A stretch of 64,000 nucleotides of DNA from Candidatus Bathyarchaeum sp. (GCA_026014495.1 JAOZIF010000171.1:1-64000); one strand, 5' to 3'; shown: positions 27,085 through 53,658, counted from the stretch's first letter. Numbers and translations: made by a program. The notes: generated from the letters alone by a model not told the origin.

Positions 27085-27291
27085 ATGTTGTTGGGTAAGG
27101 TTCGAAACGCTTGGAGGCGACGAGCCAGACAATATTTAATCAAAAATGTGGGTAAAGAAGATTGGTGCATCTTCGCAAAGGCTCTATGTAGTTCATCGGG
27201 CAGTTGTCGTGGATTTCCTTATGATTGCATATCCTGTTTTGATGCATACTTCAATTCTAGGGATGTTCTACAGAATGCTTTGAAACAATAG
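27085..27291 (+). CDS. Small Cys-rich hypothetical protein
   Basis: 68 aa, GAGG upstream of ATG, five Cys. Confidence 0.4.
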   Translation: MLLGKVRNAWRRRARQYLIKNVGKEDWCIFAKALCSSSGSCRGFPYDCISCFDAYFNSRDVLQNALKQ

Positions 27292-27306
27292 ACTTGGTAC
27301 TTGTTG

Positions 27307-28743
27307 TCATTCACGTTTCCAGAATAGGTAAACTTTGGTTTGTGTTAGAAAGCCGATGATTCGCATCATTTTTGCTAGCTTGGTTGTGTCTGCATTGTCT
27401 ACAATATTTGCGTATTCTTTGTTGTTTAGGAATGGCTTTTTGGTGCCTGCGACTCTTTTTCGGTAGATGCCTTTGACCTCTTTAATGATGTCTCTAACTT
27501 TGTTAAGTTCTGTTTTTGTCATGTTTTGTAGTTTGTTTATGTTTGCTTTTTCTGAGGTGAGAAAGACTGGGTTGAAGTTGAGGTCTGCTAGTTTTTCTAC
27601 GGTTTTTGTTACCTGTGGGTTGGGTGTGCTTTGGGTAATTTTGGTCATTCCTGCTTTTTCTAAGAATGGGTTGTATTTTGCCATAACTGCTATTGTTTCA
27701 ACGTAGGGTTTTCCTGCTAAATGGAGTGTTTCTTCTACGATTTTTGCTCCTAGTCCGATTGTGCGGTATTTTGGGTGGATTACTACTCTACTGATGCGGA
27801 TTATGTCTCGGTTGATTTCTTGTATTGTCATTTTTTTTCCTATGGCTTCTCGTCTGCCTGTTACTGCTAGTGGTGGGGAGCCATAGACTATGGCGCCTAT
27901 TGTTTCGTCGCCTCTTTTCATGACAAAGATTTTGTGGTGCGCAAAGAGTCTAGAGTCTCTGTAATGGAAGTGTGCTAATTTTTTGTAGTCTGCTTTTGTT
28001 CCTTTTTCGATGTGCATCTGTTTTATGATGCTGCATTGCTTGTTGAGGCTGTTTGGGTAGTAGTTGACTTTGATTTCTTTTCCGAACCTTTTATGGATGT
28101 GAATTGAAGGTTTTAGGTCGTCAAAAAGGTCCGTGTGTGTTGTAGCGACAAATAATGCTATGCCTTCTTTTCTTGCAATTTTTTGTATATTGTAGGCTAC
28201 GATTTTGGCTGTGTCTCTGTCTAAGGTGGAGCAGAATTCGTCTGCGAACCAGTATTTTTTGTTTGATTCTATCATTTTGGCTAGGCGATATCTGTATTTT
28301 TGTCCGTCGCTGAGTTGGCTGTATCGTCGCACGAAAAGAAAAGCGTCATTTAATCCAACTCTGGAGAGCAGGTTTAGGCCCTCGTCAAAGTTTTTGCCGA
28401 CACTATCTATGAGGGGCTTGTCGGGGTCGATTTTTATGTTCTCTAGGTTTACTGTTTCTGGCTGTAGGTCTTTTTCTAGTGCTTTTAGTAGGACGCTTTT
28501 TCCGCTTCCACTGTCTCCCGTGATGTAGACTATGTCGTTGGGTGCAATCTTTAGCTCCAAATTGTCGTAGATTACGTGTTCTTGGTAGTTGTCTACTCCG
28601 ATGCCAAATGCTTCGGCGACTTTGATTGTGCGGTCTGTGACATCTGTTCTTGTTTTGTATGATATGTTGACTTTGTATGTGCCTGTTTTTTTGTCGTACT
28701 TTTTTTGGAATCTTGTTATTTTGAAAATTTCACGCATTCCCAT
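27307..28743 (-). CDS. ABC-type ATPase fused to a GNAT acetyltransferase
   Basis: Walker A GDSGSGKS, signature LSDGQKYR, Walker B FADEF, VATTH; GNAT motif RVVIHPKYRTIGLG; no TM segments. Confidence 0.88.
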   Translation of the reverse strand: MGMREIFKITRFQKKYDKKTGTYKVNISYKTRTDVTDRTIKVAEAFGIGVDNYQEHVIYDNLELKIAPNDIVYITGDSGSGKSVLLKALEKDLQPETVNLENIKIDPDKPLIDSVGKNFDEGLNLLSRVGLNDAFLFVRRYSQLSDGQKYRYRLAKMIESNKKYWFADEFCSTLDRDTAKIVAYNIQKIARKEGIALFVATTHTDLFDDLKPSIHIHKRFGKEIKVNYYPNSLNKQCSIIKQMHIEKGTKADYKKLAHFHYRDSRLFAHHKIFVMKRGDETIGAIVYGSPPLAVTGRREAIGKKMTIQEINRDIIRISRVVIHPKYRTIGLGAKIVEETLHLAGKPYVETIAVMAKYNPFLEKAGMTKITQSTPNPQVTKTVEKLADLNFNPVFLTSEKANINKLQNMTKTELNKVRDIIKEVKGIYRKRVAGTKKPFLNNKEYANIVDNADTTKLAKMMRIIGFLTQTKVYLFWKRE

Positions 28744-28744
28744 T

Positions 28745-30103
28745 TTACCACGCTCTGATTAGTCTTGATGGGGCTTGGGTTTTTCTTGTTGATATGCAGG
28801 CTAGGGCTAGTGCCCAGAGTCTGTCGTCGTGTGTTCCTTCTGGGTGACTGAATTTTGTGTGTCCGTCTTTGGTGAGTTCATATTTTTCGCAGTGTATCTC
28901 GGCGATTAGCTGGCTGTCATAGGGCATGGATAGTTTGTTTGTTTGCATTTGTTCACGTAAGTGGCTTAGTATCTCCTCTTTTCGTTTGGTTGTCAAAACG
29001 ACGCCTTTGGTGTTGGCGACTATTGTTGTCATGTCTTCTGTGATGTATTCGCCGATTCCTGTTTGGTCAACGTAGACTGATTCTACTGTTTGGTAACGGT
29101 CGGTTAGGGCTTTGATGTAGCCGATTACGCTAGCGTATGGTGTACCTAGCTTGAATCTGTGCATGTGAACAAGACGAACCTGGCCGTCTGCTAGAAGCTG
29201 AACTACTGCAACTGCGCTGTGGTCACGTTTTTTTCCCAAATCTACGCCGACACAGAATCTGCCGTTTAATCTGTTGATGAAGCTTGCGTATGTCAGGTTA
29301 CCGTTTACGCATTTGGTGATGAGTTCTTGTGGGAAGTAGCGGCTTTCGTCTTCTGCCCATTGTGCCTCCATTTCTCTGTGCCATCGCCATGGGTCGCCTG
29401 TTAGTTGTCTTCGTATTTTTTGTAGAATCTGCTCTTTGAGTGGTCCATGTGGTTCCACGGCGTCTTTCCAGGTGATGTGTGATTTAGCAAAGTCGCTAAA
29501 GTCTTCGTGGTTGAAGATTCTGTAAAAAACATGGTCTGTGCTCCATGGTGTACTGGAGCAGACAAACTTTCCATTTGTAGTGCCCAACGTAAACAGTATA
29601 GCGTCATACATTTCTTCGTCATTAGCTGTAAAATTCATTTCATCCCAGTAGACCAGATGCAAGGTAGGTCCGCGAATAGTGTCGGGATTGTTTGGGTAAC
29701 ATTCTATGATGCTGCCGTTAGAGAAGTAAATGACAGTTTTTCTTGACTTTACAACCCAGCCTTCAGGTAAATGTTTGAGAAAAGCGGATATTTTGCGTAT
29801 AATCAGCTTGGCTTGGCGGTAGCTTGGACCCACAACTCCGATGGATGTGTCGTGTTTGGTTAATGCGTAATACAGAAGAAGTGCAGCGATTGTGTGGCTT
29901 TTTCCGCTTTGTCGGCACCATCGGGCTGCAACAAACTGTTTTTCCATGAAGTTGCGGGTTAACTGTTTTTGGTATTGTGTTGGCGTGAATTTGAGTGTTT
30001 GTTCAAAAAAGTCTATGGGGTTGTCTTGGACTTTACTTGTTTTTTGAAGTTTTTGCCTGATTTGTTGTTCAAGCTTTTGGGTTTGTTTCTCCAAGTTGTT
30101 CAT
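28745..30103 (-). CDS. terL: Terminase large subunit
   Basis: Walker A WCRQSGKS, Walker B LVYWDE, nuclease motifs GVDLG, VDQTGIG, HDDRLWALALA. Confidence 0.95.
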   Translation of the reverse strand: MNNLEKQTQKLEQQIRQKLQKTSKVQDNPIDFFEQTLKFTPTQYQKQLTRNFMEKQFVAARWCRQSGKSHTIAALLLYYALTKHDTSIGVVGPSYRQAKLIIRKISAFLKHLPEGWVVKSRKTVIYFSNGSIIECYPNNPDTIRGPTLHLVYWDEMNFTANDEEMYDAILFTLGTTNGKFVCSSTPWSTDHVFYRIFNHEDFSDFAKSHITWKDAVEPHGPLKEQILQKIRRQLTGDPWRWHREMEAQWAEDESRYFPQELITKCVNGNLTYASFINRLNGRFCVGVDLGKKRDHSAVAVVQLLADGQVRLVHMHRFKLGTPYASVIGYIKALTDRYQTVESVYVDQTGIGEYITEDMTTIVANTKGVVLTTKRKEEILSHLREQMQTNKLSMPYDSQLIAEIHCEKYELTKDGHTKFSHPEGTHDDRLWALALACISTRKTQAPSRLIRAW

Positions 30104-30409: not shown

Positions 30410-30410
30410 T

Positions 30411-30680
30411 TCACGCCCTTTGTCCAAAGAATGTTCCCAGAAGTGTTCCTACAACCAGTGTTATGGTGGCAAAGATTTCTGCATTGAATTTACCCAGAAA
30501 CATCATGTGTGCAATCTCTAGTGCAGTTAACAGGGCTAATATTGCAGTGGCTGCTATCACGCCATAAATTATTGTTTGGCTGGGTGGGATTTCGACGCGT
30601 TTTGTTTGTTGTCCCGATTTTAGCAGAACCTTTTTTGTGAAGAGTTTTGAGATTCGCTCTTTCACTTTTGCCACCTGCAT
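30411..30680 (-). CDS. Small two-TM protein (holin-like candidate)
   Basis: Basic N-terminus, two hydrophobic helices, located between tail genes and terS. Confidence 0.45.
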   Translation of the reverse strand: MQVAKVKERISKLFTKKVLLKSGQQTKRVEIPPSQTIIYGVIAATAILALLTALEIAHMMFLGKFNAEIFATITLVVGTLLGTFFGQRA

Positions 30681-31045
30681 TTGACTTTGACGAAGTGTCC
30701 GCTTTTGGTTTTGATTTTCATGAGGTTTTTCTTGATTATTTCGTGGTAGTTTTCTTCGAGGTCGTGGTGTCGTCTGACGTTGACTTTTTCTATCATGCCT
30801 AATGGGATGCAGTTGTAGACTAGGTCGTAGGTTTTTTCTGTGATTTGGAAAATGTCTTTTAGCAAAATCAGGTGTTTTGTGCGTTTTCCTTTGACTCCAA
30901 CGTAGTGCCCGATGCTGGCTACTGGAGTGTCAAAGTGGGGTTCTCCGCCTTCTCCTGTTCTGCCCATTGCTTCGCTTGCGTCTAGCCAGTATACTCTGAC
31001 AAGGTCTCCAAAACTTAGTTCTTCGATTTGGTTTTCTTTTTTCAT
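30662..31045 (-). CDS. Phage-type hypothetical protein
   Basis: GDLVRVYWLDA small beta-barrel-like pattern; coupled in the operon. Confidence 0.55.
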   Translation of the reverse strand: MKKENQIEELSFGDLVRVYWLDASEAMGRTGEGGEPHFDTPVASIGHYVGVKGKRTKHLILLKDIFQITEKTYDLVYNCIPLGMIEKVNVRRHHDLEENYHEIIKKNLMKIKTKSGHFVKVKCRWQK

Positions 31046-33250: not shown

Positions 33251-33615
33251 AAACCAGCCTCCCTTTTTGCAGACTCTAAGGATTCACAGATTATCGCCTC
33301 CAGCCGAGGCAAAGCCTCCCTAACTGCAGGATACAAAAACGGACGAGCCCTCATGTAACGCGTTCCAAACTCAACAGCCATTGCATAAGTTGTTTGTGCG
33401 CCAACCTCTGCAATCCATTCACTTATTTTAGAGTAAATTGAGCTTTGTAGTTGCCCAGTTTTTACGGGAACCCGTTGTTTAGCCGATTCTTTAACGTCCG
33501 TAGCCCACTTTGTTAACTGTTCATGGACTTGGCGCTGCATGCCCGAATCAAATTTGTTCATTGCAGTCTTGAATTCTTCAACGCCGTTTATGTCAAGGCT
33601 TATCTGGATCGACAT
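33247..33615 (-). CDS. HK97 gp10-like tail component
   Basis: PVKTGQLQSSI, YAMAVEFGTRYMRARPFLYPA. Confidence 0.9.
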   Translation of the reverse strand: MSIQISLDINGVEEFKTAMNKFDSGMQRQVHEQLTKWATDVKESAKQRVPVKTGQLQSSIYSKISEWIAEVGAQTTYAMAVEFGTRYMRARPFLYPAVREALPRLEAIICESLESAKREAGL

Positions 33616-33809
33616 CTGGTTTGTTTCTCCATTTTCTGTTTTTCTTCCTCTGCTTGGCGGTCTAGTTCGTTAAGAATTACTATGAACTCCTGCACCGTTT
33701 TGGCTGGCTGCCTATCGAGCTGGGTTGGTGTGAACCCGAATTCCTTGCAGAGACGAAACCTTGTGACTGCACTGTGGGGCTTTGCTCGTCTGATTGCCCT
33801 GATAAAAAA
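33600..33809 (-). CDS. -1 frame extension of the tail assembly chaperone (gpGT-like)
   Basis: Open -1 frame from the T TTT TTA slippery site (33809-33803) to TAA at 33602-33600, with no start codon of its own near the site: IRAIRRAKPHSAVTRFRLCKEFGFTPTQLDRQPAKTVQEFIVILNELDRQAEEEKQKMEKQ. Confidence 0.75.
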   Translation of the reverse strand, partial: FFIRAIRRAKPHSAVTRFRLCKEFGFTPTQLDRQPAKTVQEFIVILNELDRQAEEEKQKMEKQTRCRSR

Positions 33810-34150
33810 CGTGTCTCCTCTACAGTTACGCTGCAGAGCATGTTAGCCGTTTGGCTGAACAACTCACCAAGCTCAATGGGAATTCCAACATCTTCACTAA
33901 GCAGCCTTTCAAGACTTATTGGCTCACTTTGTGGCTGCTCTTTAAGGCTAGCCCAGATTGTCTCTGCCTGAATTGCAACATAGTCGCTTTTTACAACCTG
34001 ACCAGACACAGGATGATACCGTGTGTGCTTTTGGATGATGCGGTTACGTTTTGCCCAAGAAATCTCCCCAAAAACGTAACTGCCAACATAGTCTTCGCCG
34101 AATCGGCTGTCAATTTCGATAGTTTGTGTTCTCAATGTCAATAACTCCAT
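33680..34150 (-). CDS. Tail assembly chaperone (gpG-like); start at 34150 or TTG 34135
   Basis: Directly downstream of the tail tube gene; carries an in-frame slippery heptamer. Confidence 0.75.
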   Translation of the reverse strand: MELLTLRTQTIEIDSRFGEDYVGSYVFGEISWAKRNRIIQKHTRYHPVSGQVVKSDYVAIQAETIWASLKEQPQSEPISLERLLSEDVGIPIELGELFSQTANMLCSVTVEETRFLSGQSDEQSPTVQSQGFVSARNSGSHQPSSIGSQPKRCRSS

Positions 34151-34152
34151 TT

Positions 34153-34995
34153 TTAGTTGATTGCCACGCTCTTTGCAACAAAAGGCGCTTTTACAGAAAC
34201 CAAGTCCTCGATTCGAGTCGGCGGCGAAATGCTCTCCCATTTGCAATCACTAAAAACTGCCTTGCTTGTTCCACCTAGCCCAAACTCTAAGCTGAAGTCG
34301 CTGTCGTTTATGATGTCGTCAAATTCATTTTTGGTTTCAAAATCAAAAGTTAGTTCTCCTGTGCAGTTTCTGTGACGTTCTGGCAGGTACTTGAGCAGGT
34401 GACCGTCTGTTGTTCTGATAACGGGTACGCGTTTAAGGTTGTTTTCTATGGTGAACCGAAAATCTGTTACATGGTCTATTGTGGTTGTGTCTTTTTTGAT
34501 GTAACTCTCGTAGTAGGGCACGGCTCCAGAATGGTCTGCGTATGTTGCGCCGCTGATTTTGTCTGTTCCAATCGTCACGTCCTGTCCAATTAGCTCTGCG
34601 GTTGCTTTGAGTATGTCTTCTACTGAACATTCGACAGTTAATGTGTTGAATCTGCAGCCCGTATAGAGCAAATCAATTGTTTCTGATGTTTTCTCGTAGA
34701 CAACCTCTATGCTTAGTGATTCTAGGGTCTGCACGTTTAGTAGAAAGTCTATGGGCGATGCACTAGGCAGGTTGTATTCGATTTTGAGTCCTACCTGACG
34801 TAATCCCGTTTTTATTGTTTGCAGGTCCCGTGAGCCTGTGCCTCTAACTTTGATTAGTCCAGGATTCAGGGTTGGCTCCACATTTTCTGTAGTTGCTAGT
34901 CCTGTCATGGACGGGGTTGATGGGGTTACGCCGTAGCTTGATTCTACAACGTAGTATGCTTTTGCCTCATGGGCTCCATATACTGGTGTAGTCAC
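34153..34995 (-). CDS. Major tail tube protein
   Basis: 280 aa, beta-rich; YVVESSYGVTP, FRFTIENNL, TGELTFDFE patterns; GGAG SD before GTG. Confidence 0.85.
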   Translation of the reverse strand: MTTPVYGAHEAKAYYVVESSYGVTPSTPSMTGLATTENVEPTLNPGLIKVRGTGSRDLQTIKTGLRQVGLKIEYNLPSASPIDFLLNVQTLESLSIEVVYEKTSETIDLLYTGCRFNTLTVECSVEDILKATAELIGQDVTIGTDKISGATYADHSGAVPYYESYIKKDTTTIDHVTDFRFTIENNLKRVPVIRTTDGHLLKYLPERHRNCTGELTFDFETKNEFDDIINDSDFSLEFGLGGTSKAVFSDCKWESISPPTRIEDLVSVKAPFVAKSVAIN

Positions 34996-37750: not shown

Positions 37751-37964
37751 ATCGCAAGTCACCAAACATAATAGAGGAAATAAGGCAGATTTAATGTTAG
37801 TTCACAAAAATAACTGTTTAAAAAGGATTATTTGTAAAATAAAGCGTTTAAATCAGAGTTTTTATTTGATGGTTTGTAGATTAATTGCTCGAAAACAGCC
37901 TCTCAAAATCAAGGAAACCGAAACGTGGAAACATGACTTCGTGGATGCGACTGTAATTATTTTT

Positions 37965-39360: not shown

Positions 39361-39397
39361 TAGTCAATACGTAACAAAATACAATCAAGGGTACACA

Positions 39398-42035: not shown

Positions 42036-42414
42036 TCAAGTTTCCTCCTTCGTCTATGTGCATGACCTGTTTGCCTTCAACACCCAAAACGTAGACTATC
42101 GGTTTGTGGGCAGCTCCGCCTTTGTGTATCCGCAACTTGATTGTGTTCGTTCTGTACGCCACAAGCTTGTCTCCTTGCTCTAAACTTATGGTGTATGACG
42201 GATTTTTGGTTGGAACAACAAGAATTTTCTCTGTTTTTAGTATCTTCTGAAATAGCTCCATCGAAAACGGATACCAACCAAAACGCTCTAGCTTCTGCTG
42301 GTTAACTTCTAGGAACATGTTTTCTTTACCTGTTTCTGGGTCAAACTGGGGCAAAGCAGAGCCATCAGTGTATTCGGCTATCCAAAAATAAACTAGGGGA
42401 CGATAGCCGATCAT
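42019..42414 (-). CDS. Phage-type hypothetical protein
   Basis: 131 aa, coupled within the structural operon. Confidence 0.55.
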   Translation of the reverse strand: MIGYRPLVYFWIAEYTDGSALPQFDPETGKENMFLEVNQQKLERFGWYPFSMELFQKILKTEKILVVPTKNPSYTISLEQGDKLVAYRTNTIKLRIHKGGAAHKPIVYVLGVEGKQVMHIDEGGNLIDDSS

Positions 42415-42426
42415 CTTTTGGTCTCC

Positions 42427-43035
42427 TTAAATCTCGTCGTACTTGAAGCTTAGCGTCTCGTCTGCTTGTTCCCCTTGCACAGCGTCATTTGCTACTTTAC
42501 ACTGCAAAACCACTGCTTTGGTTTTCTCTGCACTGGTATGGTCAGTAGAGTCAATTATCGCAGGTGAACCTTCAGTGTCACTGGCTACGTCCGCGGTTGG
42601 AGTTGTTTGACTGTTATAGTAACTGTGTCCATTTGTGGCGTCTTCTATGCTGTCTCCCGTGTCTGCTTCTGTTCCCGTTGCCACCTCATACTCCGAGGGC
42701 ATCGCACATCCGTGGTCGCCAGAGTCCCTGTTTCCACGTCGAAGTTCGCCTCCTGTTCCAAAATTCCATCCAATTGCCCCATCAGAACAAAAACGCACAT
42801 TGTTAATCTGCGTAAAAGTTCCACTAAGGTCCAAACAGACATGAATCCAGTAGCTATAATTGAAGTCACTGCTCGGTATAGAAATCGGGTAAGACGTGTC
42901 TGCAGGAGCAAACTGGTCTTTTGTCTGCAATCGCGTACTTGCTGTGACATTATTGTAGCTTGCTGGGCTGCCGTCTGAGCCGCCAACTGTTTGCTGCACA
43001 TTTACTGTTGCAACCATCTCTTTTGTTTCCTCCAT
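42427..43035 (-). CDS. Putative virion structural protein
   Basis: 202 aa, acidic and beta-rich, downstream of MCP. Confidence 0.55.
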   Translation of the reverse strand: MEETKEMVATVNVQQTVGGSDGSPASYNNVTASTRLQTKDQFAPADTSYPISIPSSDFNYSYWIHVCLDLSGTFTQINNVRFCSDGAIGWNFGTGGELRRGNRDSGDHGCAMPSEYEVATGTEADTGDSIEDATNGHSYYNSQTTPTADVASDTEGSPAIIDSTDHTSAEKTKAVVLQCKVANDAVQGEQADETLSFKYDEI

Positions 43036-43044
43036 TCTCCTTTT

Positions 43045-43260
43045 TTATGATATATTTTCTGAAATTTGTTCAATGAACTTAGCTGGGTCTCGGGTTATTG
43101 TGACCGTTTTTGTGGTTGTGTCACTGGTAACTTGGAGCTGTGTGATGTAACCTGCATCATCACGGGTTATTGTGACGGTGTGTGGTGTCTTGATTCCGTG
43201 GATTGCGTCATGGATTGCTTTGTAAGCTTCAGTGTAGTTGCCCCAGTTAGTTTCACTCAT
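43045..43260 (-). CDS. Small protein with duplicated TVTITRD motif
   Basis: 71 aa; DNA repeat cgggttattgtgac at 43091 and 43163. Confidence 0.55.
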   Translation of the reverse strand: MSETNWGNYTEAYKAIHDAIHGIKTPHTVTITRDDAGYITQLQVTSDTTTKTVTITRDPAKFIEQISENIS

Positions 43261-44702: not shown

Positions 44703-45920
44703 TCATCCTTGCTTACTCCCGGTCACTTTTGTTGACTGTGAAGTTAGCCTGTGCCGTAATTGTCGCACAAGCAGTTGCGGTCCAATGCTCCAGGCTCTGA
44801 CTATCCAGTCTTCGGGCAACATGTTTAGAACATCCTTTCTAAGTATCAAGTCAGAGTTCTGGGGCTCAGAAGGTGTGATAATTGCCTCTTCCAACGGTTT
44901 TGGCACTTCAGGCTCTGTTTCTGGTTGAGGCGATTTAACTGGAGGTGTTTGTGTTTGTTTTTGCACATACTGTGGATGGGTACTAACCCACTCCTTCACT
45001 TTTTCTAATGTCCAGCCTTTGTCCTTCATGAAAAGCAGTGCCATAGGCTGGGGATTCTCTGGTTTATCGCGCAGTAGCCCGTAGATTGCTTGTATTCCGT
45101 TGGTTTGGTCAATCCAAACTGTGGAGAAATGCTCTTCCATGAATACTGCGGACTCAATTATTGGATAAAATATAAATTGCTGTTGAAGCGAAACCTGTTC
45201 GTTCGCTTTTGTTTCATTCTCTTTGAACTTGTTGATTATTGCTTCCCAGAGTTCCACGGTTGTTTGGGGGTCTCCAGGCTGGTAATCTTTCAGGAGTGAA
45301 AGTCCTGTGAATTTGATTCCTCTTGGTGCGTGTCCGTTGAGTTTTTCTAGGGTTTTCCACTCGAATTCTACGCTGCAGTGTTGTATTGTGCCATCCTCGA
45401 TCTGTTTTGTTATATCAGGGTCGTCAAGTTGAGCTACATATTCAATTGCTCCATCTTCATACTCTGCACCGAGTACCCTGCCGTTAATTGGTGTTTTGTG
45501 GTCAAGAATCAGATGTGTTCCTGCTAAGGTGTGAGCGGATTTTTCTAGTTCTTCTTTGAGGTATTCTCTTATCTGTGGCCACTCTTGGGGGTGGACTGTT
45601 CTGATTGGGTGTAGGGCTTTTCCTCGGATCAGGTTTCCTGTTTGTGGAATATTTTTGATTGTGCCTGTCCAGTTGAATGATTCTTTAGCCTGTTTTTCAT
45701 GCTCATTAAACCATTCTTGTGCTTTTTCTGTTGTCCATCCTTTTTCTTTGTTGAACAGGTAACTTACAACTTCTGTTGCTTCTTTATTCCATTGTTTTGC
45801 TGTTATTGCTTGAATGCCTTCTTCTTGGTTGAGGGTTATTGTTTTGAGGGTTTCTGGGTCAAAATCTTCAGGGTTGTTGTGTCCTGAACGAATGACTGTT
45901 TGGGTTTGGTCCCATGGCAA
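44703..45920 (-). CDS. Prohead protease/scaffold with a duplicated accessory domain; TTG start (LPWDQT)
   Basis: Central LILDH...CSVEF protease-like core flanked by two GIQAI...LF.K.KGWT.EK..EW domains. Confidence 0.7.
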   Translation of the reverse strand: MPWDQTQTVIRSGHNNPEDFDPETLKTITLNQEEGIQAITAKQWNKEATEVVSYLFNKEKGWTTEKAQEWFNEHEKQAKESFNWTGTIKNIPQTGNLIRGKALHPIRTVHPQEWPQIREYLKEELEKSAHTLAGTHLILDHKTPINGRVLGAEYEDGAIEYVAQLDDPDITKQIEDGTIQHCSVEFEWKTLEKLNGHAPRGIKFTGLSLLKDYQPGDPQTTVELWEAIINKFKENETKANEQVSLQQQFIFYPIIESAVFMEEHFSTVWIDQTNGIQAIYGLLRDKPENPQPMALLFMKDKGWTLEKVKEWVSTHPQYVQKQTQTPPVKSPQPETEPEVPKPLEEAIITPSEPQNSDLILRKDVLNMLPEDWIVRAWSIGPQLLVRQLRHRLTSQSTKVTGSKQG

Positions 45921-46100
45921 ACTTTTGCACCTAACATGATTGGTGCGATGCAATGTTAAAAGATGAAATCAGCACTTGAGACAGATTAACTATTGTGCCA
46001 TACTTGGTTTTTGTTGTTTTATTTTCGGTTACCTCTCTATGGAACGTTGTTGTTTGTTGGTTAACAGCCTTTTTAGCTGTATTTAGTGAACTTCTTGGTT

Positions 46101-46316
46101 ATGGTAAAAATACAAAAACGGCTAGTGAAGAAGCGATACTACAGTAAGGCAGAATACAAGTACCCAGTGTATTCTTTGACTATACCTAAGGAGTTTCACG
46201 ACCTTCTTAAACCGTTCTTAGATGAAGACTTGGAAGCAAAAGTAGAACACAAAACAGATGTTTTAACAATCACTCTAATGCCAAGCAGTCACAATTCATC
46301 CCGAACCAAGTTTTGA
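46101..46316 (+). CDS. AbrB-like DNA-binding protein
   Basis: YSLTIPKEF motif, ~71 aa. Confidence 0.55.
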   Translation: MVKIQKRLVKKRYYSKAEYKYPVYSLTIPKEFHDLLKPFLDEDLEAKVEHKTDVLTITLMPSSHNSSRTKF

Positions 46317-46999
46317 AATCTTTTTTTGAACTTCAGAAATTATTTATCTGGATTCTTGTTAACTCAGCTTGGGGCATGCTTGTTATGTTTAATAGTAAAA
46401 AGAATCCTGAGCCTTTTACAGACTTTCTTTATTGTTTAGGGAGTTTGGAGCGCAAAAACAGCCAACTATTTGCTGAATTGGCAAGCAAAACCGTTCTTTC
46501 TGAGGTTCGGGGCAACTTGCTCAAGATTTCTGAGGGCAATGAAATGCATGCCAAAGTTCTCATCGAATTGAGTGGTCGGGTTGAGGGTCCAAAGCCAAAA
46601 ACAGGTGAGTGTAAACGAAAACTAAGACCTGTGTGTAAACTTACTGAGTCACTTCTTAATCAGGTGCACAAAAAGAAGACGCTTTCTGCAGATGAGCTTT
46701 CATCTATTTTGCTGACTTTGGAGCGTTCAGGTGGTGCTATGCAGTATTTGCAGATTCAGGCTGAAACTTTTCTTTTTATGTCAAAAGAAATCAGTCAACT
46801 GTATGGCATGAACTTGGAAGTTTTTCATGACCATATTATGGAAATTGCTCAACAAGTGGAAGAACATATAGAACTTTTGGAGGAAGTGAAAACGATGATT
46901 GCACAGAGCACTAGGAAAAAGGATGGAATGCATCATCCAGTGGTTAAGTACCAAACTCCTGATGCATGGTTTCAACCAAGAACTATGGGTGAATCATAG
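46313..46999 (+). CDS. Ferritin-like four-helix hypothetical protein (start probably ~46377)
   Basis: LE...LF..L, E..H..VL and E.H..LL helix pattern. Confidence 0.5.
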   Translation: MKSFFELQKLFIWILVNSAWGMLVMFNSKKNPEPFTDFLYCLGSLERKNSQLFAELASKTVLSEVRGNLLKISEGNEMHAKVLIELSGRVEGPKPKTGECKRKLRPVCKLTESLLNQVHKKKTLSADELSSILLTLERSGGAMQYLQIQAETFLFMSKEISQLYGMNLEVFHDHIMEIAQQVEEHIELLEEVKTMIAQSTRKKDGMHHPVVKYQTPDAWFQPRTMGES

Positions 47000-47503
47000 T
47001 TAAAACTGGTTTAGGCTAAACAGTTCGTCTTTTTGTTTCTTTTTTCTTGGTTTGGGTGTTTCTGCAGGATACCCAAAAGTGACTAGGGCTACGACTTTCC
47101 AGTCTTGAGGAATTTTCAGAGCCTGTTTGATTTTCTCTTCGTTGAAACTTCCTATCCAGCATGAACCGACTCCTAAGCTCCAAGCAGCAAGAACCATGTT
47201 TTCTAAGGCAATTGTAGTGTCGATTGTTGCCCATTTTCCAGTTAACACTGCTTTTGGGTTAGCACATCCAACAATTATAACAGGGGCTTTTTCGAGGAAT
47301 TGACTAAGAAGCCCCTTCAGTTCTTTTTTGATTTTGGCATCTGTTACAATAACGAAGCGGTATGGCTGTCTGTTTGCTGCGGAAGGTGACTGTCTACCTG
47401 CTTCAACTATCTGATCCAAAACATCTTTTGGAATTTCCTTGTTTTCGTAACGTCTAATGCTTTTGCGACTTAAAATAATTTTAAGTATGGACATGAGCAT
47501 CAA
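47000..47503 (-). CDS. Nitroreductase family protein
   Basis: RKSIRRY, PSAANRQP, LGVGSCWIG motifs. Confidence 0.92.
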   Translation of the reverse strand: MMLMSILKIILSRKSIRRYENKEIPKDVLDQIVEAGRQSPSAANRQPYRFVIVTDAKIKKELKGLLSQFLEKAPVIIVGCANPKAVLTGKWATIDTTIALENMVLAAWSLGVGSCWIGSFNEEKIKQALKIPQDWKVVALVTFGYPAETPKPRKKKQKDELFSLNQF

Positions 47504-47581
47504 TACTATTTTGTGGTTTATTGTATATTTATCTGTTCAAACAGTGTGTTTTTGGTTAGTTAATTGCTTGATGGAAATATT

Positions 47582-47595
47582 TAATTAGCTAACTA
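47582..47595. promoter_or_regulatory. Candidate MarR operator
   Basis: TAATTAGCTAACTA near-palindrome overlapping the AT-rich promoter region between divergent nitroreductase and marR genes. Confidence 0.35.
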
Positions 47596-47633
47596 ACTAT
47601 TTTTGATTGATCCTAAACACTAGAGGAATCTGA

Positions 47634-48059
47634 TTGGAAGACAGTTTGAGCTATTTGTTACGCACTGTTGCAATGCGATACCGTTACTATGCACACAACA
47701 TGTTAGGTAAAGACAAATGGGGCGTCAGCCAAGATTTAATCATTTACCATCTTGCAAAACAAAAACATCTTAATCAAAAGGACCTTGTCAACAAACTAAA
47801 CATTACACCCGCTTCAGTTTCAAGTGTTGTTGGTCAGATGGAATCTGAAGGATTACTTGTAAGAGTTCAAGACGAAGAAGATGCAAGAAAATTTAGATTA
47901 TCGCTAACCGAGAAAGGCCAGAATCTGTTGCCCCCTGTAATAAATTCGTGGCTTAACATCCAAGAAGACATAACCAAAGGGTTCACTGAAGAAGAAAAAG
48001 TAACCTTTTTACGTCTTTTAAAGCAAGTAGAACGGAATCTTGACGAGCTAACCCATTAA
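47634..48059 (+). CDS. MarR family regulator
   Basis: NQKDLV...ITPASVS..V.QME..GLLVR..D.EDARKF.LSLTEKG. Confidence 0.92.
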   Translation: MEDSLSYLLRTVAMRYRYYAHNMLGKDKWGVSQDLIIYHLAKQKHLNQKDLVNKLNITPASVSSVVGQMESEGLLVRVQDEEDARKFRLSLTEKGQNLLPPVINSWLNIQEDITKGFTEEEKVTFLRLLKQVERNLDELTH

Positions 48060-48061
48060 CA

Positions 48062-49276
48062 TTGAAAGAGGACTATTTGTTGAAAAATAACCAAAAACCT
48101 GAAGCAGACGATTTCGTGTTTGACAAGCGACTCTACGTAATATTCTTGATAATATTCACAGAAGTGTTGGGTTTCAGCATAGTCTTGCCGTTAATCCCCT
48201 TTTTAGGATTAGAGCTTGGATTAACTGCAGTGCAAATAGGGCTTATTGCAAGTGTGTTCAGTGTCTGTCAATTATTTGCCAGCCCAATAACAGGCAAACT
48301 AAGTGACCACTTTGGACGCAAACCATTGTTCATCTTAAGTCAAATAAGCACATTTGCTGGTTTCATCTTCCTTGGATTTGCTACAACTGCAATTCTGTTA
48401 ATTATTGCACGGTTAATTGACGGATTACTCGGAAGTAACATGACTGTCAGCGAAGCCTACATCAGCGACATAACTGAACCTAAACACCGAACCCGAGTCT
48501 ACGGATATTCCAGTGGAGTATTTGGCGCTGGGTTGATATTTGGTCCTGTTATTGGCGGTGTTCTATCTACAATTAATTATTCTATTCCAATGTTCTTTGC
48601 AGCAGGCATAACATTGGTTTCAATTATCCTGATTTTTTTCCTTCCTGAAACAGTAACTAAAAAGACAGGCAAACTTTCTCTTAGCTTCAATGATGTTCTT
48701 CCTGTTAATGATGTTAAATCCTTCATAAAAAACCACAAAGTAAGAAACAGTTTGTTAATGTTTTTTATTTACAACATCGGATTTCAATTGTTTATCTCTA
48801 ACTTTAGTTTACTCGCAGAAAGCCAATTTAACGCCAGCGCTAACCAAGTTAGCTTTTACATGGCATGGATTGGCATACTACGCGTAATCATCCAAACACT
48901 CCTAATTGCCCGTGTACTGCGCGCCTTGGGTGAAAGACACATCCTAATAACAGGAATACTTTCCATGGCCCTTTCAATGATAACTATTGCATTTTCGACA
49001 GAATATCTGTTTGTTTTCGTTCCATTAATCTTTCTTGCCTATGGCACAGGAGTCAGCAGACCCATTTTAACAAGTAAACTAACAAACAGCGTTACACAAA
49101 AGGAAACTGCAACAATCCTAGGCGTTAACAACTCACTAAATAGCGTAGCCCAAATAATAACACCAATTGTAGGAGGATTTGTAATTGAGTACTTGCCATC
49201 ACAAACGTTACCTATAATGTCAACTGTGTTCTTTGCATCACTGTTACTCTTTCTAAGAAACAGGGCTAAACCTTAA
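48062..49276 (+). CDS. MFS transporter (DHA1/TetA-like)
   Basis: 12 TM segments; GKLSDHFGRK motif A; AYISDIT motif. Confidence 0.92.
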   Translation: MKEDYLLKNNQKPEADDFVFDKRLYVIFLIIFTEVLGFSIVLPLIPFLGLELGLTAVQIGLIASVFSVCQLFASPITGKLSDHFGRKPLFILSQISTFAGFIFLGFATTAILLIIARLIDGLLGSNMTVSEAYISDITEPKHRTRVYGYSSGVFGAGLIFGPVIGGVLSTINYSIPMFFAAGITLVSIILIFFLPETVTKKTGKLSLSFNDVLPVNDVKSFIKNHKVRNSLLMFFIYNIGFQLFISNFSLLAESQFNASANQVSFYMAWIGILRVIIQTLLIARVLRALGERHILITGILSMALSMITIAFSTEYLFVFVPLIFLAYGTGVSRPILTSKLTNSVTQKETATILGVNNSLNSVAQIITPIVGGFVIEYLPSQTLPIMSTVFFASLLLFLRNRAKP

Positions 49277-49309
49277 TCCTACTACCATACAAATAGTGTT
49301 TGAATTAGC

Positions 49310-50584
49310 ATGGTTAATTTAGCAGTTATAGGCGCAGGAATCGGAGGTTGTTCTGCAGCATATTTTGCTCACAAATATATTCCAGACTCAAAGGTGACTG
49401 TTTATGAGATGGAAAACAGAGTCGGTGGAAGAGCCTTTACTTACTCTAAAGAAGAAATGAACACTGAGTTGGGTGCAGAGTTCTTCAATCCCACTAACAA
49501 GACAGTCTGCAACCTTGTAGATGAACTGGGTCTCAAAGTAAAGAAACTCAAGGAGACTACAGATATTGCAGTATGGAATGGAACAGAAATCATCTTCAAG
49601 TCAAGTCAGCCAATGTTTTATAATCTGCTAAAACTGTTCACCAAATACAAGCTTAGTGTGCCACGGCTACTTCGCATGTTAAGAGAAGCAAATGGACAAA
49701 TAAAAAAATTATACACAAAAGAAAAACCTGCAGAGTTCTGGGAACATTTTGAAAATGTTGGTCTTGACAAGTGGCATAAACTGCGGTTTGACAACATTTT
49801 GGTTAACATGGGAATTGACCACAAATTTATAGATGAAATAATCACGCCTATCACAAGGATAATTTACTCCCAAAACGCTGAGCTGGGAGGATTCGCTGGG
49901 CTCTCAGCTTTACTGGGCGTCTATGGAGAAGCAATTTACCGTCTCAAAGACGGCAACGATAGTTTGCCAAGAAAGCTTCTTGAAGCATCCCCTTCTAAGC
50001 TTGAATTAGAAAGCAAAGTGAAAAGCATCGAAAAAACCTCTAAAGGCTCTTTTAGGATCTTAGTTGGAGAGAATGCCTCAGTTTTTGATGCCGTGATTAT
50101 TGCAACACCATTAGAAGTCGCTGATATAGCCATTGACGGAGTGCCAAAACAGTTGCAAGCACGTGAATACCAGAAAATCTACATCAGATTAATGAAGGGA
50201 ACTGTAAATTTGAGGTATTTTAATCTTAATGCATCCGATAAATTGCCCTCTATTATCCTCACTTCCAAACAAGCAGATCCACTAACTCGGTTTTCATTTA
50301 ATAAATCACCAAAAAGCGATGAAACGTGGGTGAGTGTCACCTCAACGGAGCCAATAGGAAACGATCTTTTAGACGAGCTTTTCGAGAACGGGAGAACTAT
50401 TGTAGATCATACTTGGAATGCAGCATACCCAATTTTCAAACCAACCCCGAAACTTCCATCTACTTGCCTTGACAAGGGACTACTATACCTTAACTCGATA
50501 GAATCTGCAGCCTCAAGCCTAGAATCATCAACGTTTGCCGCCCTAAACAGCATAAAAATAATAAAAGAACAACTAGACACCTAA
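49310..50584 (+). CDS. FAD oxidoreductase resembling prenylcysteine oxidase/lyase
   Basis: GAGIGG Rossmann motif, RVGGR, WNGTEIIF, R.IYSQN, GN..L...LL.AS, YLNSIESAASSLE. Confidence 0.75.
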   Translation: MVNLAVIGAGIGGCSAAYFAHKYIPDSKVTVYEMENRVGGRAFTYSKEEMNTELGAEFFNPTNKTVCNLVDELGLKVKKLKETTDIAVWNGTEIIFKSSQPMFYNLLKLFTKYKLSVPRLLRMLREANGQIKKLYTKEKPAEFWEHFENVGLDKWHKLRFDNILVNMGIDHKFIDEIITPITRIIYSQNAELGGFAGLSALLGVYGEAIYRLKDGNDSLPRKLLEASPSKLELESKVKSIEKTSKGSFRILVGENASVFDAVIIATPLEVADIAIDGVPKQLQAREYQKIYIRLMKGTVNLRYFNLNASDKLPSIILTSKQADPLTRFSFNKSPKSDETWVSVTSTEPIGNDLLDELFENGRTIVDHTWNAAYPIFKPTPKLPSTCLDKGLLYLNSIESAASSLESSTFAALNSIKIIKEQLDT

Positions 50585-50729
50585 CATTGCAGCAAAACTA
50601 ATGCTAGATTGTGTTATCACCTGAATAACAGTAATTGCCAGTTCTCTCAAGCTGAGGATTAAAATTTGACTTTTCCTTTTTTATTTATTCAAGATATCTT
50701 TTTATCAACTAGCTAATCTAGTAATATTC

Positions 50730-51632
50730 ATGCCTGAGAGGGAGAAACGGGTTCGTTTTGCTGCGTTTTTGAATGTTGCCTTCACTATCTTAGAGCTTGT
50801 TGGCGGATTGTGGACAAACAGCCTTGCAATTCTTTCTGACGCATTACATGACTTCGGCGACAGTGTCGCATTACTAGCCTCATGGCTTTTCGAACGTGGC
50901 GCACGCAAATCACCTGATACAAACCGAACATTCGGGTACCAACGGCTATCCCTGTTTTCTGCAATATTTGCCGCTTCTATCCTTATTGGAGGTTCTATCA
51001 TAATCATCTTTCAGGCCATACCTCGTTTATTAAATCCAGAAGCTGTAAACGCAACTGGAATGGTTGGCATCGCCATCATAGGCATCGTATTCAATGGCAC
51101 AGGATTCTTTTTACTAAAAAAAGGAGAAAGCCTAAACGAAAAAGTGCTTTCTTGGCATCTCCTAGAAGATGTACTAGGTTGGGTAGGCATTCTTGCTGGA
51201 GCAATAGTAATCTACTTCTGGAAAATTTACATCCTTGACCCAATAATAACAATCGGCTTAACTGTCTTCATCCTCTACAACGTAACAAAAAGTCTCACAG
51301 AAGCAATCAATATCCTTTTGCAGGGTGTGCCAAAACACATCAATCTCGAAGTCGTCAAACAAGACCTAAAATCAATCAAAGGCGTAATTGGAATCCACGA
51401 TATCCACATCTGGTCCTTAGAGGGAGAAACCGATGTCTTCACAGCACATGTAGTGCTAGACAATGAAACCCTAAAAAGCCCTGAACCCACCAAACAAACA
51501 ATCAAAAAAACACTCCAAAAACATCACATTGAACATTCAACAATTGAACTAGAAAGCAAATACCACTGCTCAGGCATGATATGTGAAGAACGGCACACAA
51601 ACAACAAACCAAACAGCGCCCCTGAAAAATAG
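50730..51632 (+). CDS. Cation diffusion facilitator (CzcD-like Zn/Co/Cd exporter)
   Basis: SDALHD, TFGYQR, HLLEDV, IHDIHIW, HSTIE motifs. Confidence 0.93.
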   Translation: MPEREKRVRFAAFLNVAFTILELVGGLWTNSLAILSDALHDFGDSVALLASWLFERGARKSPDTNRTFGYQRLSLFSAIFAASILIGGSIIIIFQAIPRLLNPEAVNATGMVGIAIIGIVFNGTGFFLLKKGESLNEKVLSWHLLEDVLGWVGILAGAIVIYFWKIYILDPIITIGLTVFILYNVTKSLTEAINILLQGVPKHINLEVVKQDLKSIKGVIGIHDIHIWSLEGETDVFTAHVVLDNETLKSPEPTKQTIKKTLQKHHIEHSTIELESKYHCSGMICEERHTNNKPNSAPEK

Positions 51633-51866: not shown

Positions 51867-52178
51867 ATGCGTCGTGGACCAAAAAAAGGCTCAAAATTCT
51901 GTGACTTGCTAGAGGCACTAAAATTTCTTAACATGTTCAAAAAAACTCCAAAAAACGTGTACCAACTCTATCACAGTAGCCTGCATTTTGACACCAAAAA
52001 AATCTACCGTTACCTTAGATACTGTATCAAAGAAGAGCTTCTAGAAATTGACCACATCGAAGAGGCAAAATTTCTTCCCTCAAAATACTACAGGCTCACA
52101 CAGAAAGGAAGAGACTTCATTGACCTCTTCAATGATTCACACAAGAAACCATTAGCACCTAAACAAAACTCGGCATAG
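51867..52178 (+). CDS. Winged-helix protein upstream of the portal gene
   Basis: YLRYCIKEELL...YYRLTQKG. Confidence 0.7.
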   Translation: MRRGPKKGSKFCDLLEALKFLNMFKKTPKNVYQLYHSSLHFDTKKIYRYLRYCIKEELLEIDHIEEAKFLPSKYYRLTQKGRDFIDLFNDSHKKPLAPKQNSA

Positions 52179-52220
52179 ATGCTCATTTTAACTTAAGACC
52201 AAAAATCACCCACAAAACTG

Positions 52221-53438
52221 TTGGATGTAACAACCTTGAGCGCAGTTGTAAAAAAATTCAAACACCTATACGAAAAACTGCAACCAAACACCGGAACTCT
52301 TCTTCCTGCATGGCGACAAGTCTATGGAGAAACTCGAACAGTCAGTTTCGGTGACATGCTAACCGCTTATGGTCAAGATCCAAGCTGCAAGGCTTTTGTT
52401 GATTTCTTGGCTGACCAAGCTGTAGGTGCAGGGTTCTATACTACAGTTAACGAGCAATACGGCAAAGCTGACCAAACAAAACAAATAGTGGACGACTTCA
52501 ACGAAGCCGTCAACCTTGATGAACTACTCCAAATCGCAGCCAGAGAAATTGTAGCATCAGGCAATAGTTTTTGGCTAAAAACTGAACCCGAAAATCTGCA
52601 AAACCTCAAAATCCTTCCACTAACCGGATTTGATAACCCAACTGCAATAAAACGAAACCAATACGGCACCGTAACAGGTTACAACTACATCTACGGCGAA
52701 GTAAAAACGGCCTTTACACCAGAAAAAATAGTCCACTTCCGTTGGAACCCAACAAATTTTTCAGCATATGGAACTGGTGTCCTTCAAGTATTGCTCAGCG
52801 AACTATGCTTCAACGGAGAAACCAGACTCAGCTTTTTGGAAATGAAAGCCCGAATCGAAAAAATTATGCCTGAAATCTTCGAAAAATATGCAGGACCAGA
52901 CGAACTGTGGATATTCGCCGGGGCAAGCGACGAAAAACTTGCAGAATACCAAAAACTCATAAAAACAAAACCCAAAGCTGGTGCACGATTTGTTTACAAC
53001 AAACCAGAAGCAGACATAAAAACTGTTTCTGTTGACCCAAGGGCACGGTACGAACCCTACATAGATCATGTTCTAAACCAAGTCTATCTGGGCGGACAAA
53101 CTCCCCTGCCAAAGCTTTTTACAACTCCTGGATTCACAGAAGCATCTGCCCGAGCAGCCCTAGACATCGCAGAAAGGAAAGTCATGGCACTGCAACGCTT
53201 CGTAAAACGAACCTGCGAGCGAGAAATCTTTTCTCCTATAATACAGCAGGCGGGACTTGACCCCAAAAAGGCAAATTGCAGACTAAACTGGGGCACAGAA
53301 AAACCTGAAGTTAAACTCGAAGACCTAATCCGATTAGCCGAAATGAGCTCTAATCAAGAAAATCCGATTGTGAGACCTGAGGAAGTGAGAAAAAACTTGG
53401 TTAAAGCAGGCTTTGAGTTGTGGGAAAGAAACCAGTAA
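52221..53438 (+). CDS. Phage portal protein
   Basis: 405 aa; GNSFW, EKIVHFRWN...YGTG, GGQTP, ANCRLNW patterns typical of portals. Confidence 0.88.
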   Translation: MDVTTLSAVVKKFKHLYEKLQPNTGTLLPAWRQVYGETRTVSFGDMLTAYGQDPSCKAFVDFLADQAVGAGFYTTVNEQYGKADQTKQIVDDFNEAVNLDELLQIAAREIVASGNSFWLKTEPENLQNLKILPLTGFDNPTAIKRNQYGTVTGYNYIYGEVKTAFTPEKIVHFRWNPTNFSAYGTGVLQVLLSELCFNGETRLSFLEMKARIEKIMPEIFEKYAGPDELWIFAGASDEKLAEYQKLIKTKPKAGARFVYNKPEADIKTVSVDPRARYEPYIDHVLNQVYLGGQTPLPKLFTTPGFTEASARAALDIAERKVMALQRFVKRTCEREIFSPIIQQAGLDPKKANCRLNWGTEKPEVKLEDLIRLAEMSSNQENPIVRPEEVRKNLVKAGFELWERNQ

Positions 53439-53658
53439 CCGGGAGGTGAGGTATTTGGGATTAGAATTTAAGCCAAAACTCTCCGTTATTATAGCGGCAA
53501 TTCATGGTGTATCTATAGCTTTGTCTTACATAGTTACTCAGGGCGACATTACCGCCATGGTTTTGTGGGCAGCGGTATCTGCGGGTGCAACAGCGGGACT
53601 AAGTTACTACACGGAGCAAGAACAAACAGACGATTCAGTCGAGAGTTCTGCATCATAA
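53413..53658 (+). CDS. Small membrane protein (holin-like candidate); true start may be a TTG ~15 codons downstream
   Basis: Two hydrophobic helices, acidic tail, GGAGGTGA SD. Confidence 0.45.
   Translation: MSCGKETSNREVRYLGLEFKPKLSVIIAAIHGVSIALSYIVTQGDITAMVLWAAVSAGATAGLSYYTEQEQTDDSVESSAS

Follow-up and report, generated by a model that had tools for sequence, protein, structure and literature searches.

A host-inherited tailed-virus gene set in Candidatus Bathyarchaeum as a candidate gene transfer agent-like particle system

A 64,000-nucleotide stretch of Candidatus Bathyarchaeum sp. DNA (GCA_026014495.1 JAOZIF010000171.1:1-64000; hereafter referred to as the window) carries an element of tailed-virus genes that lies interleaved with host genes at one chromosomal site. 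The element is unable to excise as one piece, descends together with the chromosome and dates back to the divergence of the genus. As judged from comparisons of coding sequences, purifying selection acts on all of its structural genes tested, and on a programmed translational frameshift, wherever a lineage has kept the element. The data thus give good support to an endogenised particle system that appears to be maintained by selection and independently derived, and make it a candidate for a viriform resembling gene transfer agents (GTAs). We regard it as probable that a small archaeal tailed virus left the element as its endogenised remnant, which is inherited by the host and selected as a producer of DNA-filled, GTA-like particles. 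More tentatively, it may be a bona fide archaeal GTA, by which host chromosomal DNA would be packaged and moved between the cells of these archaea, which are abundant in sediments.

The definition of GTAs as viriforms (Kogay et al. 2022, PMC9662315) comprises particles derived from caudoviricetes, an endogenised genome, vertical inheritance, the packaging of random host DNA, a head that is too small, and delivery. Published work on Bathyarchaeia describes viruses and proviruses (PMC10848311, PMC11705971, PMC13573593), and provirus domestication has been treated in general (PMC13626063). Our literature search found no description of a syntenic, vertically inherited element in Bathyarchaeia or of an archaeal GTA gene set.

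Layout of the element

The source contig (C113) belongs to a 2.19-Mb metagenome-assembled genome (MAG; labelled G000) that is 93% complete and comprises 196 contigs. Listing of the open reading frames (ORFs) and scans against Pfam and PHROG placed the tailed-virus genes at 27.3–53.7 kb of the window, in three groups. The tail–terminase unit runs on the minus strand from 37765 to 27307 and encodes neck, tail, small and large terminase subunits (TerS and TerL) and an ABC/GNAT protein, in the order of 122-, 469- and 345-amino acid (aa) proteins, tube, chaperone, gp10-like protein, 181-aa protein, hub, two small proteins, the TerS position, TerL and ABC/GNAT. The head unit, also on the minus strand (45953 to 40190), encodes a 416-aa protein, the cement protein, the major capsid protein (MCP), proteins of 71, 202, 131 and 435 aa, a zinc-ribbon protein and an 80-aa winged-helix protein. 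The portal unit lies on the plus strand, where a 76-aa gene at 46086 is followed by host genes and then by genes for a PadR-like protein, the 405-aa portal and an 81-aa membrane protein (51867–53658). The host-type genes that separate these three transcription units encode a NosD-like protein, an orotidine monophosphate (OMP) decarboxylase/HUMPS-family protein, a nitroreductase, a MarR regulator, a major facilitator superfamily (MFS) transporter, a prenylcysteine-lyase-like flavoprotein and a cation diffusion facilitator (CDF).

A preliminary description of this DNA had claimed a complete set of virion genes, split into three blocks by host-type genes, with no structural gene pseudogenised and no integrase, replication genes or attachment (att) repeats. 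Intact genes for TerL, portal, prohead protease, cement, HK97-type MCP, tube, frameshifted chaperone, gp10-like protein and hub bear out the greater part of that set, and the labels of TerS, tape measure and neck proteins are positional. All element ORFs of the window are full length compared with their orthologues; pseudogenes are absent here and decay occurs only in other species. The statements on missing functions also stand: contig C113 contains no match to PF00589; no replication or recombinase family was found among ORFs of at least 70 aa at 19.4–56.8 kb, where the only candidates for lysogeny control are two small winged helix-turn-helix (wHTH) proteins; and no att-like repeat longer than 14 bp was found at the block borders, which have only low-complexity matches of 11–14 bp. 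No tRNA was found, no promoter or operator motif common to the three units was found upstream of them, and the MAG, searched for CRISPR arrays to test spacer targeting, contains none that we could find. GC content at third codon positions was discarded as a sign of foreign DNA, as the gap (0.44 versus 0.38–0.40) is small and not diagnostic.

One locus throughout the genus

We compared all window ORFs, by tblastn, with regions from congeneric species. At least five other species carry the element at the same locus with the same host-gene interruptions. G001 (on a 264-kb contig) and G018 (on a 119-kb contig) are collinear with window positions 19.4–59.5 kb, including all three units and the interrupting host genes, and G014 (on two contigs) and G013 are likewise collinear. 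Because the three-block layout recurs on the 264-kb and 119-kb contigs of other MAGs, it is not an assembly artefact. In G011, a 55-bp contig overlap inside the DegT gene reveals an inversion, which runs from the OMP-decarboxylase gene to the gene at 56192. It has moved the head and portal units away from the tail–terminase unit, to a distance of more than 17 kb, and breaks no gene. Furthermore, eight IMG/VR or JGI metagenome contigs combine an ABC/GNAT identity of at least 70% with sufficient sequence beyond the gene; every one of them enters the same host flank, and none enters an integrase.

Host genes that interrupt the element are native to the locus, since several of them stand in order at the element-free site of the closed genome G005. 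There, the left flank is followed by the wHTH gene (26306) and genes for the OMP-decarboxylase-family protein, nitroreductase, MFS transporter, flavoprotein and CDF transporter, the 53794 gene and DegT. G003, G016 and G010 also have no viral genes at the locus and keep only subsets of the host genes, the sites of G016 and G010 ending at a contig end. Other species retain remnants. G006 has pieces of the ABC/GNAT, 469-, 435- and 416-aa genes, together with intact 122-aa, wHTH and portal genes, and tiny fragments occur at the expected places in G009, G004, G019, G020, G024 and G002. Blocks have been lost singly while the intervening host genes stayed, which points to deletion and not to excision. 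Element- and remnant-bearing species are spread over all major clades of the host tree; this spread, together with the remnants, indicates that the common ancestor of the sampled genus already had the element, which has since been lost many times.

Purifying selection and co-divergence with the host

We calculated ratios of nonsynonymous to synonymous divergence (ω) by the NG86 method. Between the window and five species, ω is 0.02–0.31 across the element genes, with the top values in the hypervariable 435-aa gene, and the proportion of synonymous differences (pS) is 0.45–0.8, a level that element genes share with the flanking host genes. Per gene, ω is 0.03–0.28 save in two hypervariable genes of the head unit, one of which reaches about 0.31. 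In pooled comparisons of closer pairs, whose dS is not saturated, the element has a synonymous divergence (dS) of 0.321 and ω of 0.142 over 5130 codons between G001 and G018 (host flanks: 2141 codons, dS 0.334, ω 0.177), and its ω between G018 and G007 is 0.136. The dS of element and host flanks is 0.444 and 0.419 for G001–G023, and 0.588 and 0.523 for G011–G013. The MCP is 91–95% identical in eight congeneric species, compared with 78–86% for leucyl-tRNA synthetase (LeuRS), and constraint on the terminase and portal equals that on the tail genes.

The slippery sequence CGTTTTTTATC of the tail assembly chaperone gene and the peptide encoded in the −1 frame are kept in all seven orthologues (G000, G001, G007, G011, G014, G018 and G021), a conservation that would be difficult to account for if tail assembly were no longer under selection. 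The chaperone gene of the outgroup provirus has another slippery run at the same place.

Host trees were made from LeuRS and from LeuRS plus six flank genes, and the concatenated element tree was rooted on the integrase-bearing lineage described below. The element tree recovers the host clades (G011, G013), (G012, G015) and (G001, G018, G007). An apparent conflict over G014, whose partner is G000 in the element tree but G017 in the host trees, vanishes when the trees are compared unrooted. As the integrase-less, interleaved layout is shared by near-saturated lineages (pS 0.45–0.8), its immobilisation predates their split. The comparisons that the preliminary description had proposed thus turned out in favour of domestication: several Bathyarchaeum species have orthologous clusters in synteny, ω lies well under 1 while element and host flanks have equal dS, and the element and host trees are congruent at supported nodes.

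Integrase-bearing relatives

The same virus group includes a second lineage, more divergent (MCP 71–76%, TerL 43–57% identity), which occupies other loci in two of the genomes, as proviruses at about 630.4–654.4 kb of G005:C1 (the closed chromosome of the cultivated Ca. Bathyarchaeum tardum) and at about 14.8–43 kb of G011:C5. Small ORFs and a tyrosine integrase come after its structural module, which occupies about 19 kb in compact form and has the gene order of the window: divergent portal, protease–cement–MCP, zinc-ribbon, wHTH and neck–tail–TerS–TerL–ABC/GNAT. These two proviruses and L124/L208, metagenome contigs of a lineage with 64% ABC/GNAT identity, resemble the window element, at 43–76% identity, in structural module, order and frameshifted chaperone, and have a 205-aa tape measure. 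They differ from it in being compact, at other loci and equipped with early-type ORFs and a tyrosine integrase, whereas the window lineage is host-interleaved and lacks these genes. The integrase follows ABC/GNAT at a distance of 59 bp in L124/L208, 4.2 kb in G005 and 6.7 kb in G011:C5. By contrast, no PF00589 match was found on the element contigs of G001, G018 and G013, and a tblastn search with the L124/L208 integrases for a remnant beside ABC/GNAT yielded nothing at E values up to 1. Since related lineages kept the integrase, the window lineage has lost its integrase and early region, and the lack of integrase on element contigs accords with what the preliminary description had expected of a domesticated element. 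Two of the domestication signs proposed there fall away in this comparison: the tape measure is short in the relatives too (181 aa versus 205 aa in integrase-bearing proviruses), and the seemingly displaced, inverted portal reflects a divergent portal and TerL-last order that are native to the virus group.

Several other features of these relatives were observed. In the G005 and G011:C5 proviruses (loci L034-L036 and L037-L039), genes for a PLD nuclease and helicase (DISARM-like) lie just outside the portal, and a restriction-type HSDR_N gene lies on the opposite strand at the head–neck junction. A genome of another genus, G033, carries a compact copy without integrase (C1:1095.7–1114.7 kb, L116-L117), with 85% identity in MCP and 75% in tube; its TerL is only 33% identical and non-orthologous, which points to a terminase swapped by recombination. 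Here, too, a homologue of the 26306 wHTH gene follows the copy. In the window's own MAG, the short contigs C67 and C160 carry second-lineage MCP (75%) and TerL (44%) genes, and C120:69-1334 is a second copy (86% identity) of the flank gene at window 19424–20701. The bin may mix two congeneric populations or hold a second provirus.

Genes of the element

The features and their coordinates are listed in Table 1. In the tail–terminase unit, the ABC/GNAT gene stands directly after TerL in all lineages compared (ω 0.06–0.13). Its relatives number more than 540 in sediment metagenome contigs, 149 of them in IMG/VR, and in several lineages an integrase follows immediately; to judge from these contigs, ABC/GNAT after TerL is a hallmark of a very large uncultured virus group. 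TerL is 81–85% identical in eight congeneric species (ω 0.06–0.10) and at most 27% identical to that of any cultured virus. The putative TerS is 69–83% conserved and has no family match. The hub (ω 0.06–0.10) shares 54–58% identity with the 805- and 852-aa homologues of integrase-bearing proviruses, the putative tape measure is 83–86% conserved (ω 0.03–0.10), and the tube is 79–88% identical in six species. An atlas feature search with the 469-aa protein returned viral clusters at 0.97–0.98 and GH88/GH127-like clusters at 0.81; we treat this as a lead to a virus-associated family with (α/α)6 glycosidase-like features. Two near-identical 13-nt direct repeats (AAACTTTCTTGAC and AAAGTTTCTTGAC) at 37830–37990, 5′ of the 122-aa gene that opens the unit, could be an operator. 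Moreover, a dispersed repeat of 24–38 bp overlaps the start of the putative terS gene (window 30373–30396) and recurs in the window at 3071–3094 and, in reverse complement, at 19262–19285; its 24-mer core is found as five exact copies across the MAG, including those at G000 C101:17695 and C193:45232, and the repeat may be a MITE end or a regulatory site.

Table 1. Features of the element and of the host genes that interrupt it (window coordinates)
Feature	Position	Strand	Evidence and remarks
ABC-type ATPase/GNAT acetyltransferase fusion, 478 aa	27307..28743	-	ABC_tran 9.6e-13, phrog_11143 1e-36; last gene of unit, left edge of element
Large terminase subunit TerL, 452 aa, T4-type ATPase and nuclease	28745..30103	-	Terminase_6N 1.5e-19, phrog_2 5e-45
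Putative small terminase subunit TerS, 111 aa	30069..30404	-	Position only; overlaps TerL start
89-aa protein (two predicted membrane helices) and 127-aa protein	30411..31045	-	No significant family match; 70–88% conserved
Tail hub/distal tail protein, 552 aa	31050..32708	-	phrog_400 tail protein 1e-5, Prophage_tail 3e-3
Putative tape measure protein, 181 aa	32705..33250	-	Position and composition (Ala/Gly/Val-rich hydrophobic segments); no family match
HK97 gp10-like tail-completion/neck protein, 122 aa	33247..33615	-	HK97-gp10_like 4.8e-7, phrog_5 1.3e-20
Tail assembly chaperone with programmed frameshift (G/GT type)	33600..34246	-	Slippery CGTTTTTTATC and -1 frame peptide; chaperone gene at 33680-34246
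Tail tube protein, 280 aa	34153..34995	-	Phage_tube_2 4.3e-24, phrog_290 1e-29
Three neck/tail genes, 345, 469 and 122 aa	35010..37765	-	No Pfam match; neck labels positional; kept in all lineages including outgroups
Host genes: NosD-like beta-helix and OMP-decarboxylase/HUMPS-family gene	38056..40183	+	Pfam and synteny
Winged-helix regulator, 80 aa (40190-40432), and zinc-ribbon protein, 104 aa	40190..40743	-	phrog_2440 transcriptional regulator 5e-8; close head unit
Variable slot after MCP: 71-, 202-, 131- and 435-aa genes	40728..43260	-	No homologues in related viruses
HK97-fold major capsid protein MCP, 306 aa	43311..44231	-	Phage_capsid_4 6.6e-7 and five MCP PHROGs
Capsid cement/decoration protein, 139 aa	44246..44665	-	Phage_cement_2 3.1e-10, phrog_673 8e-16
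Prohead protease, 416 aa, first head-unit gene	44703..45953	-	Central domain about 109-237; N- and C-terminal extensions
76-aa gene, native first gene of divergent portal unit	46086..46316	+	Adjoins PadR and portal in G033 and IMG/VR contig L113
Host genes: 228-aa protein, nitroreductase, MarR, MFS, prenylcysteine-lyase-like flavoprotein, CDF transporter	46313..51632		Pfam; split portal unit
PadR-like winged-helix (103 aa), portal (405 aa, 52221-53438), membrane protein (81 aa)	51867..53658	+	Right edge of element

In the head unit, the 416-aa protease matches the HGTV-1 prohead protease in tblastn (7e-3) and has invariant His, Ser and Asp columns; the top Foldseek match, for a model of pLDDT 59, is T4 gp21 (5jbl; prob 0.99, E 3.9e-3). 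Its N- and C-terminal extensions are possibly the scaffold. The MCP has an ω of 0.02–0.12. The preliminary description had labelled the 71-, 202- and 131-aa genes after MCP as adaptor and stopper-like proteins, and we drop these labels, as the genes are lineage-specific and absent from related viruses. The genes of this variable slot are absent or replaced in G005, G011:C5, G033 and the IMG/VR lineages, and are 41–64% identical versus 80–94% for their neighbours. The 435-aa gene is the fastest-evolving of all, and its 131-aa neighbour likewise evolves much faster than its surroundings, as is expected of a surface-recognition component. The 435-aa protein combines a zinc-ribbon with a jelly-roll/polysaccharide-lyase-like part (atlas structure match with TM 0.70 by target; weak Polysacc_lyase match, 7e-5) and is possibly a surface-glycan binding protein. 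Homologues of the zinc-ribbon and wHTH proteins follow the MCP in all related lineages. The 80-aa wHTH gene is intact (82–90% identity) on G006:C6 and G020:C6, where almost all else of the element is deleted, and may have been taken over as a host regulator.

In the portal unit, the 76-aa gene of the window is cut off from PadR and portal by host genes. The portal matches phrog_2662 (4.4e-5) and, in tblastn, the ‘putative portal’ of Nvie-Pro1 (1e-8), and one homologue contains PF04860; its orthologues are 82–91% identical in 12 of 24 species (ω 0.06–0.15). An AlphaFold model of the portal from a 15-sequence alignment reached a pLDDT of 45 and was not used for fold search, and alignment profiles of the portal and the protease against PDB sequences gave spurious matches or none.

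Among the host genes, the OMP-decarboxylase/HUMPS gene is at the same spot in all species, even those without viral genes, and a second PF00215 gene lies on C52. The gene at 53794–54024, next beyond the right edge, is also present at empty sites. The window encodes three paralogous NosD-like/β-helix proteins (3231–4484, 12256–13419 and 38056–39360); the copy inside the element is found in this genome only, and related copies sit near the locus in other species.

Proposed origin and alternative explanations

We propose that a virus settled permanently at a single chromosomal site in the ancestor of Ca. Bathyarchaeum. Having shed the integrase and the early/replication module, it would since have been passed down vertically as three host-interleaved units (portal; protease–cement–MCP; neck–tail–TerS–TerL–ABC/GNAT). 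The selected function would be the making of complete, DNA-filled tailed particles. As the element has no excising or replicating genome of its own, such particles would be filled with chromosomal DNA. Its T4-type terminase, which we take from knowledge of the family to be a headful-packaging enzyme, would fill the heads with host DNA either at random or from a pac-like site in situ. Two proteins, one glycan-enzyme-like and the other glycan-binding-like, may mediate attachment to other cells together with the tail, and where selection lapses, blocks would be lost by large deletions.

Several observations weigh against this proposal. Retention is patchy, with an apparently complete set in no more than roughly one-third to one-half of the species sampled; at least seven species have remnants only and at least four have nothing. 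G013 lacks the whole tail–terminase unit. In G015, a 55-bp contig overlap reveals a deletion whose junction fuses the 469-aa gene at residue 268 with TerS at residue 64, and the tail and half of TerS are gone. The portal of G017 is in two pieces. At the element, neither lysis genes nor links to host-type regulators are recognisable. The NG86 values are rough on saturated pairs and reliable on the closer ones (dS about 0.3). Finally, the locus measures 23–26 kb in G000, G001 and G018, compared with about 24 kb for the related G005 provirus, and spans more than 42 kb in G011; by size alone, the locus gives no sign of being too big to package itself. The preliminary description's domesticated DNA-packaging particle accordingly survives in its domestication, for which synteny, ω, trees and the lack of integrase argue, and is qualified by a presence that repeated deletion has made patchy. 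We reject its alternatives of an assembly artefact and a recently decayed provirus.

Synteny, ω, trees and dS apply equally to a PBSX-like killer particle or another use unrelated to transfer, in which packaged host DNA would be incidental and not productively delivered. The sequence does not separate killing from transfer, and the putative surface-glycan binding protein is encoded by the fastest-evolving gene, which is what strain-specific targeting would lead one to expect. However, no toxin or lysis cassette is recognisable, and the terminase and portal, which a pure tailocin would not need, are constrained like the tail genes; we consider such a use unlikely, though the strongest of the alternatives. 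The continuum of decay states in the genus (G013, G015, G006, G017 and many remnant-only species) would suit a grounded provirus in slow decay, trapped by integrase loss, of no benefit to the host and with a low ω left over from its past viral life. Yet about 18 kb of coding sequence has been kept open in at least five species, with an ω of 0.14 and a dS equal to that of host genes, over a distance at which neutral drift should have produced many stops and frameshifts. Moreover, the layout is shared by near-saturated lineages, and so was immobilised before they split, and the chaperone's slippery site has been kept. Slow decay is therefore quite unlikely.

The T4-type terminase would also serve a platform for lateral transduction, with in-situ headful packaging of adjoining chromosome from a pac-like site within the element, or a helper whose particles move a satellite or second provirus in trans; neither would be the random packaging of a GTA. 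A related provirus lineage does co-occur on G011:C5, with fragments on C67 and C160 of G000, but it is absent from most of the element-bearing genomes searched, and no pac site or satellite was identified, which leaves this alternative improbable. Least credible, to the point of being very nearly dismissed, is the idea that the virus is temperate and still active, with host genes as cargo and a recombinase that escaped recognition, or that the element is an artefact of assembly or binning. Several ORFs have no known family, the MAG is in 196 contigs and a flank gene has its second copy on C120; against this stand the recurrence of the layout in independent MAGs, where contigs are as long as 264 kb, the loss of single blocks with host genes kept, the inverted and separated blocks of G011 and a phylogeny that follows the host. 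On balance, we favour a host-inherited producer of DNA-filled particles.

Comparison with known systems

As far as sequence can tell, the element shows three of the six features that define GTAs (PMC9662315), namely proteins derived from caudoviricetes, full endogenisation (often across several loci) and mostly vertical co-diversification with the host. The element has no integrase and att sites bounding a contiguous genome and no replication or lysogeny module, as a temperate provirus would. It has no pseudogenes and an ω that is not near 1, which sets it apart from a cryptic prophage, and its MCP, portal, protease and TerL are present and constrained, unlike in a tailocin. RcGTA (Rhodogtaviriformidae, Alphaproteobacteria) is similar in its head–tail–terminase set without integrase or replication genes, its endogenisation, its vertical inheritance with many losses, its purifying selection and its host-separated parts (PMC9662315). 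The Bathyarchaeum element differs from it in its independent origin from an archaeal virus and in its order (portal, protease–MCP ... tail–TerS–TerL–ABC/GNAT), and displays no evidence of a reduced head, its short tape measure being ancestral and not a reduction. The portal homology with Nvie-Pro1 of Nitrososphaera viennensis places tailed-virus genes in a related archaeal lineage. In the literature, however, Nvie-Pro1, Fuxiviridae, Kunpengviridae and BATPV1/2 figure as viruses or proviruses that possess integrase genes, replication genes or both (PMC10848311, PMC11705971), the comparison with BATPV, Fuxi- and Kunpengviruses being by description only.

Defective prophages of the PBSX type and phage-like bacteriocins resemble the element as chromosomally fixed, non-replicating, complete head–tail sets kept by the host. 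PBSX of Bacillus is a conserved defective prophage that packages host DNA and kills rather than transduces; it has induction and lysis genes and a killing phenotype, and nothing comparable is recognisable here. VTA of Methanococcus voltae is similarly a tailed-virus-like particle system of an archaeal host that does not behave as a virus. VTA is defined by its activity, whereas the Bathyarchaeum element is known from its genes and evolution alone. To our knowledge, VTA is the only archaeal GTA, with transduction activity and no established genes, and the GTAs with a known genetic basis are all bacterial. The literature refers to Bertani 1999 for VTA.

Implications

If the element is a GTA, it would be, as far as we know, the first archaeal one with known genes, and viriform domestication would have happened in Thermoproteota too. 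The genus-wide syntenic gene set is a concrete target for particle fractions, metatranscriptomes and enrichment cultures. In addition, the natural series from intact through headless or tailless to remnant, together with the integrase-bearing relatives, lends itself to the study of virus domestication and loss. The gene set makes two questions directly testable, that of domesticated DNA-packaging particles in archaea and that of gene flow in the deep sediment biosphere.

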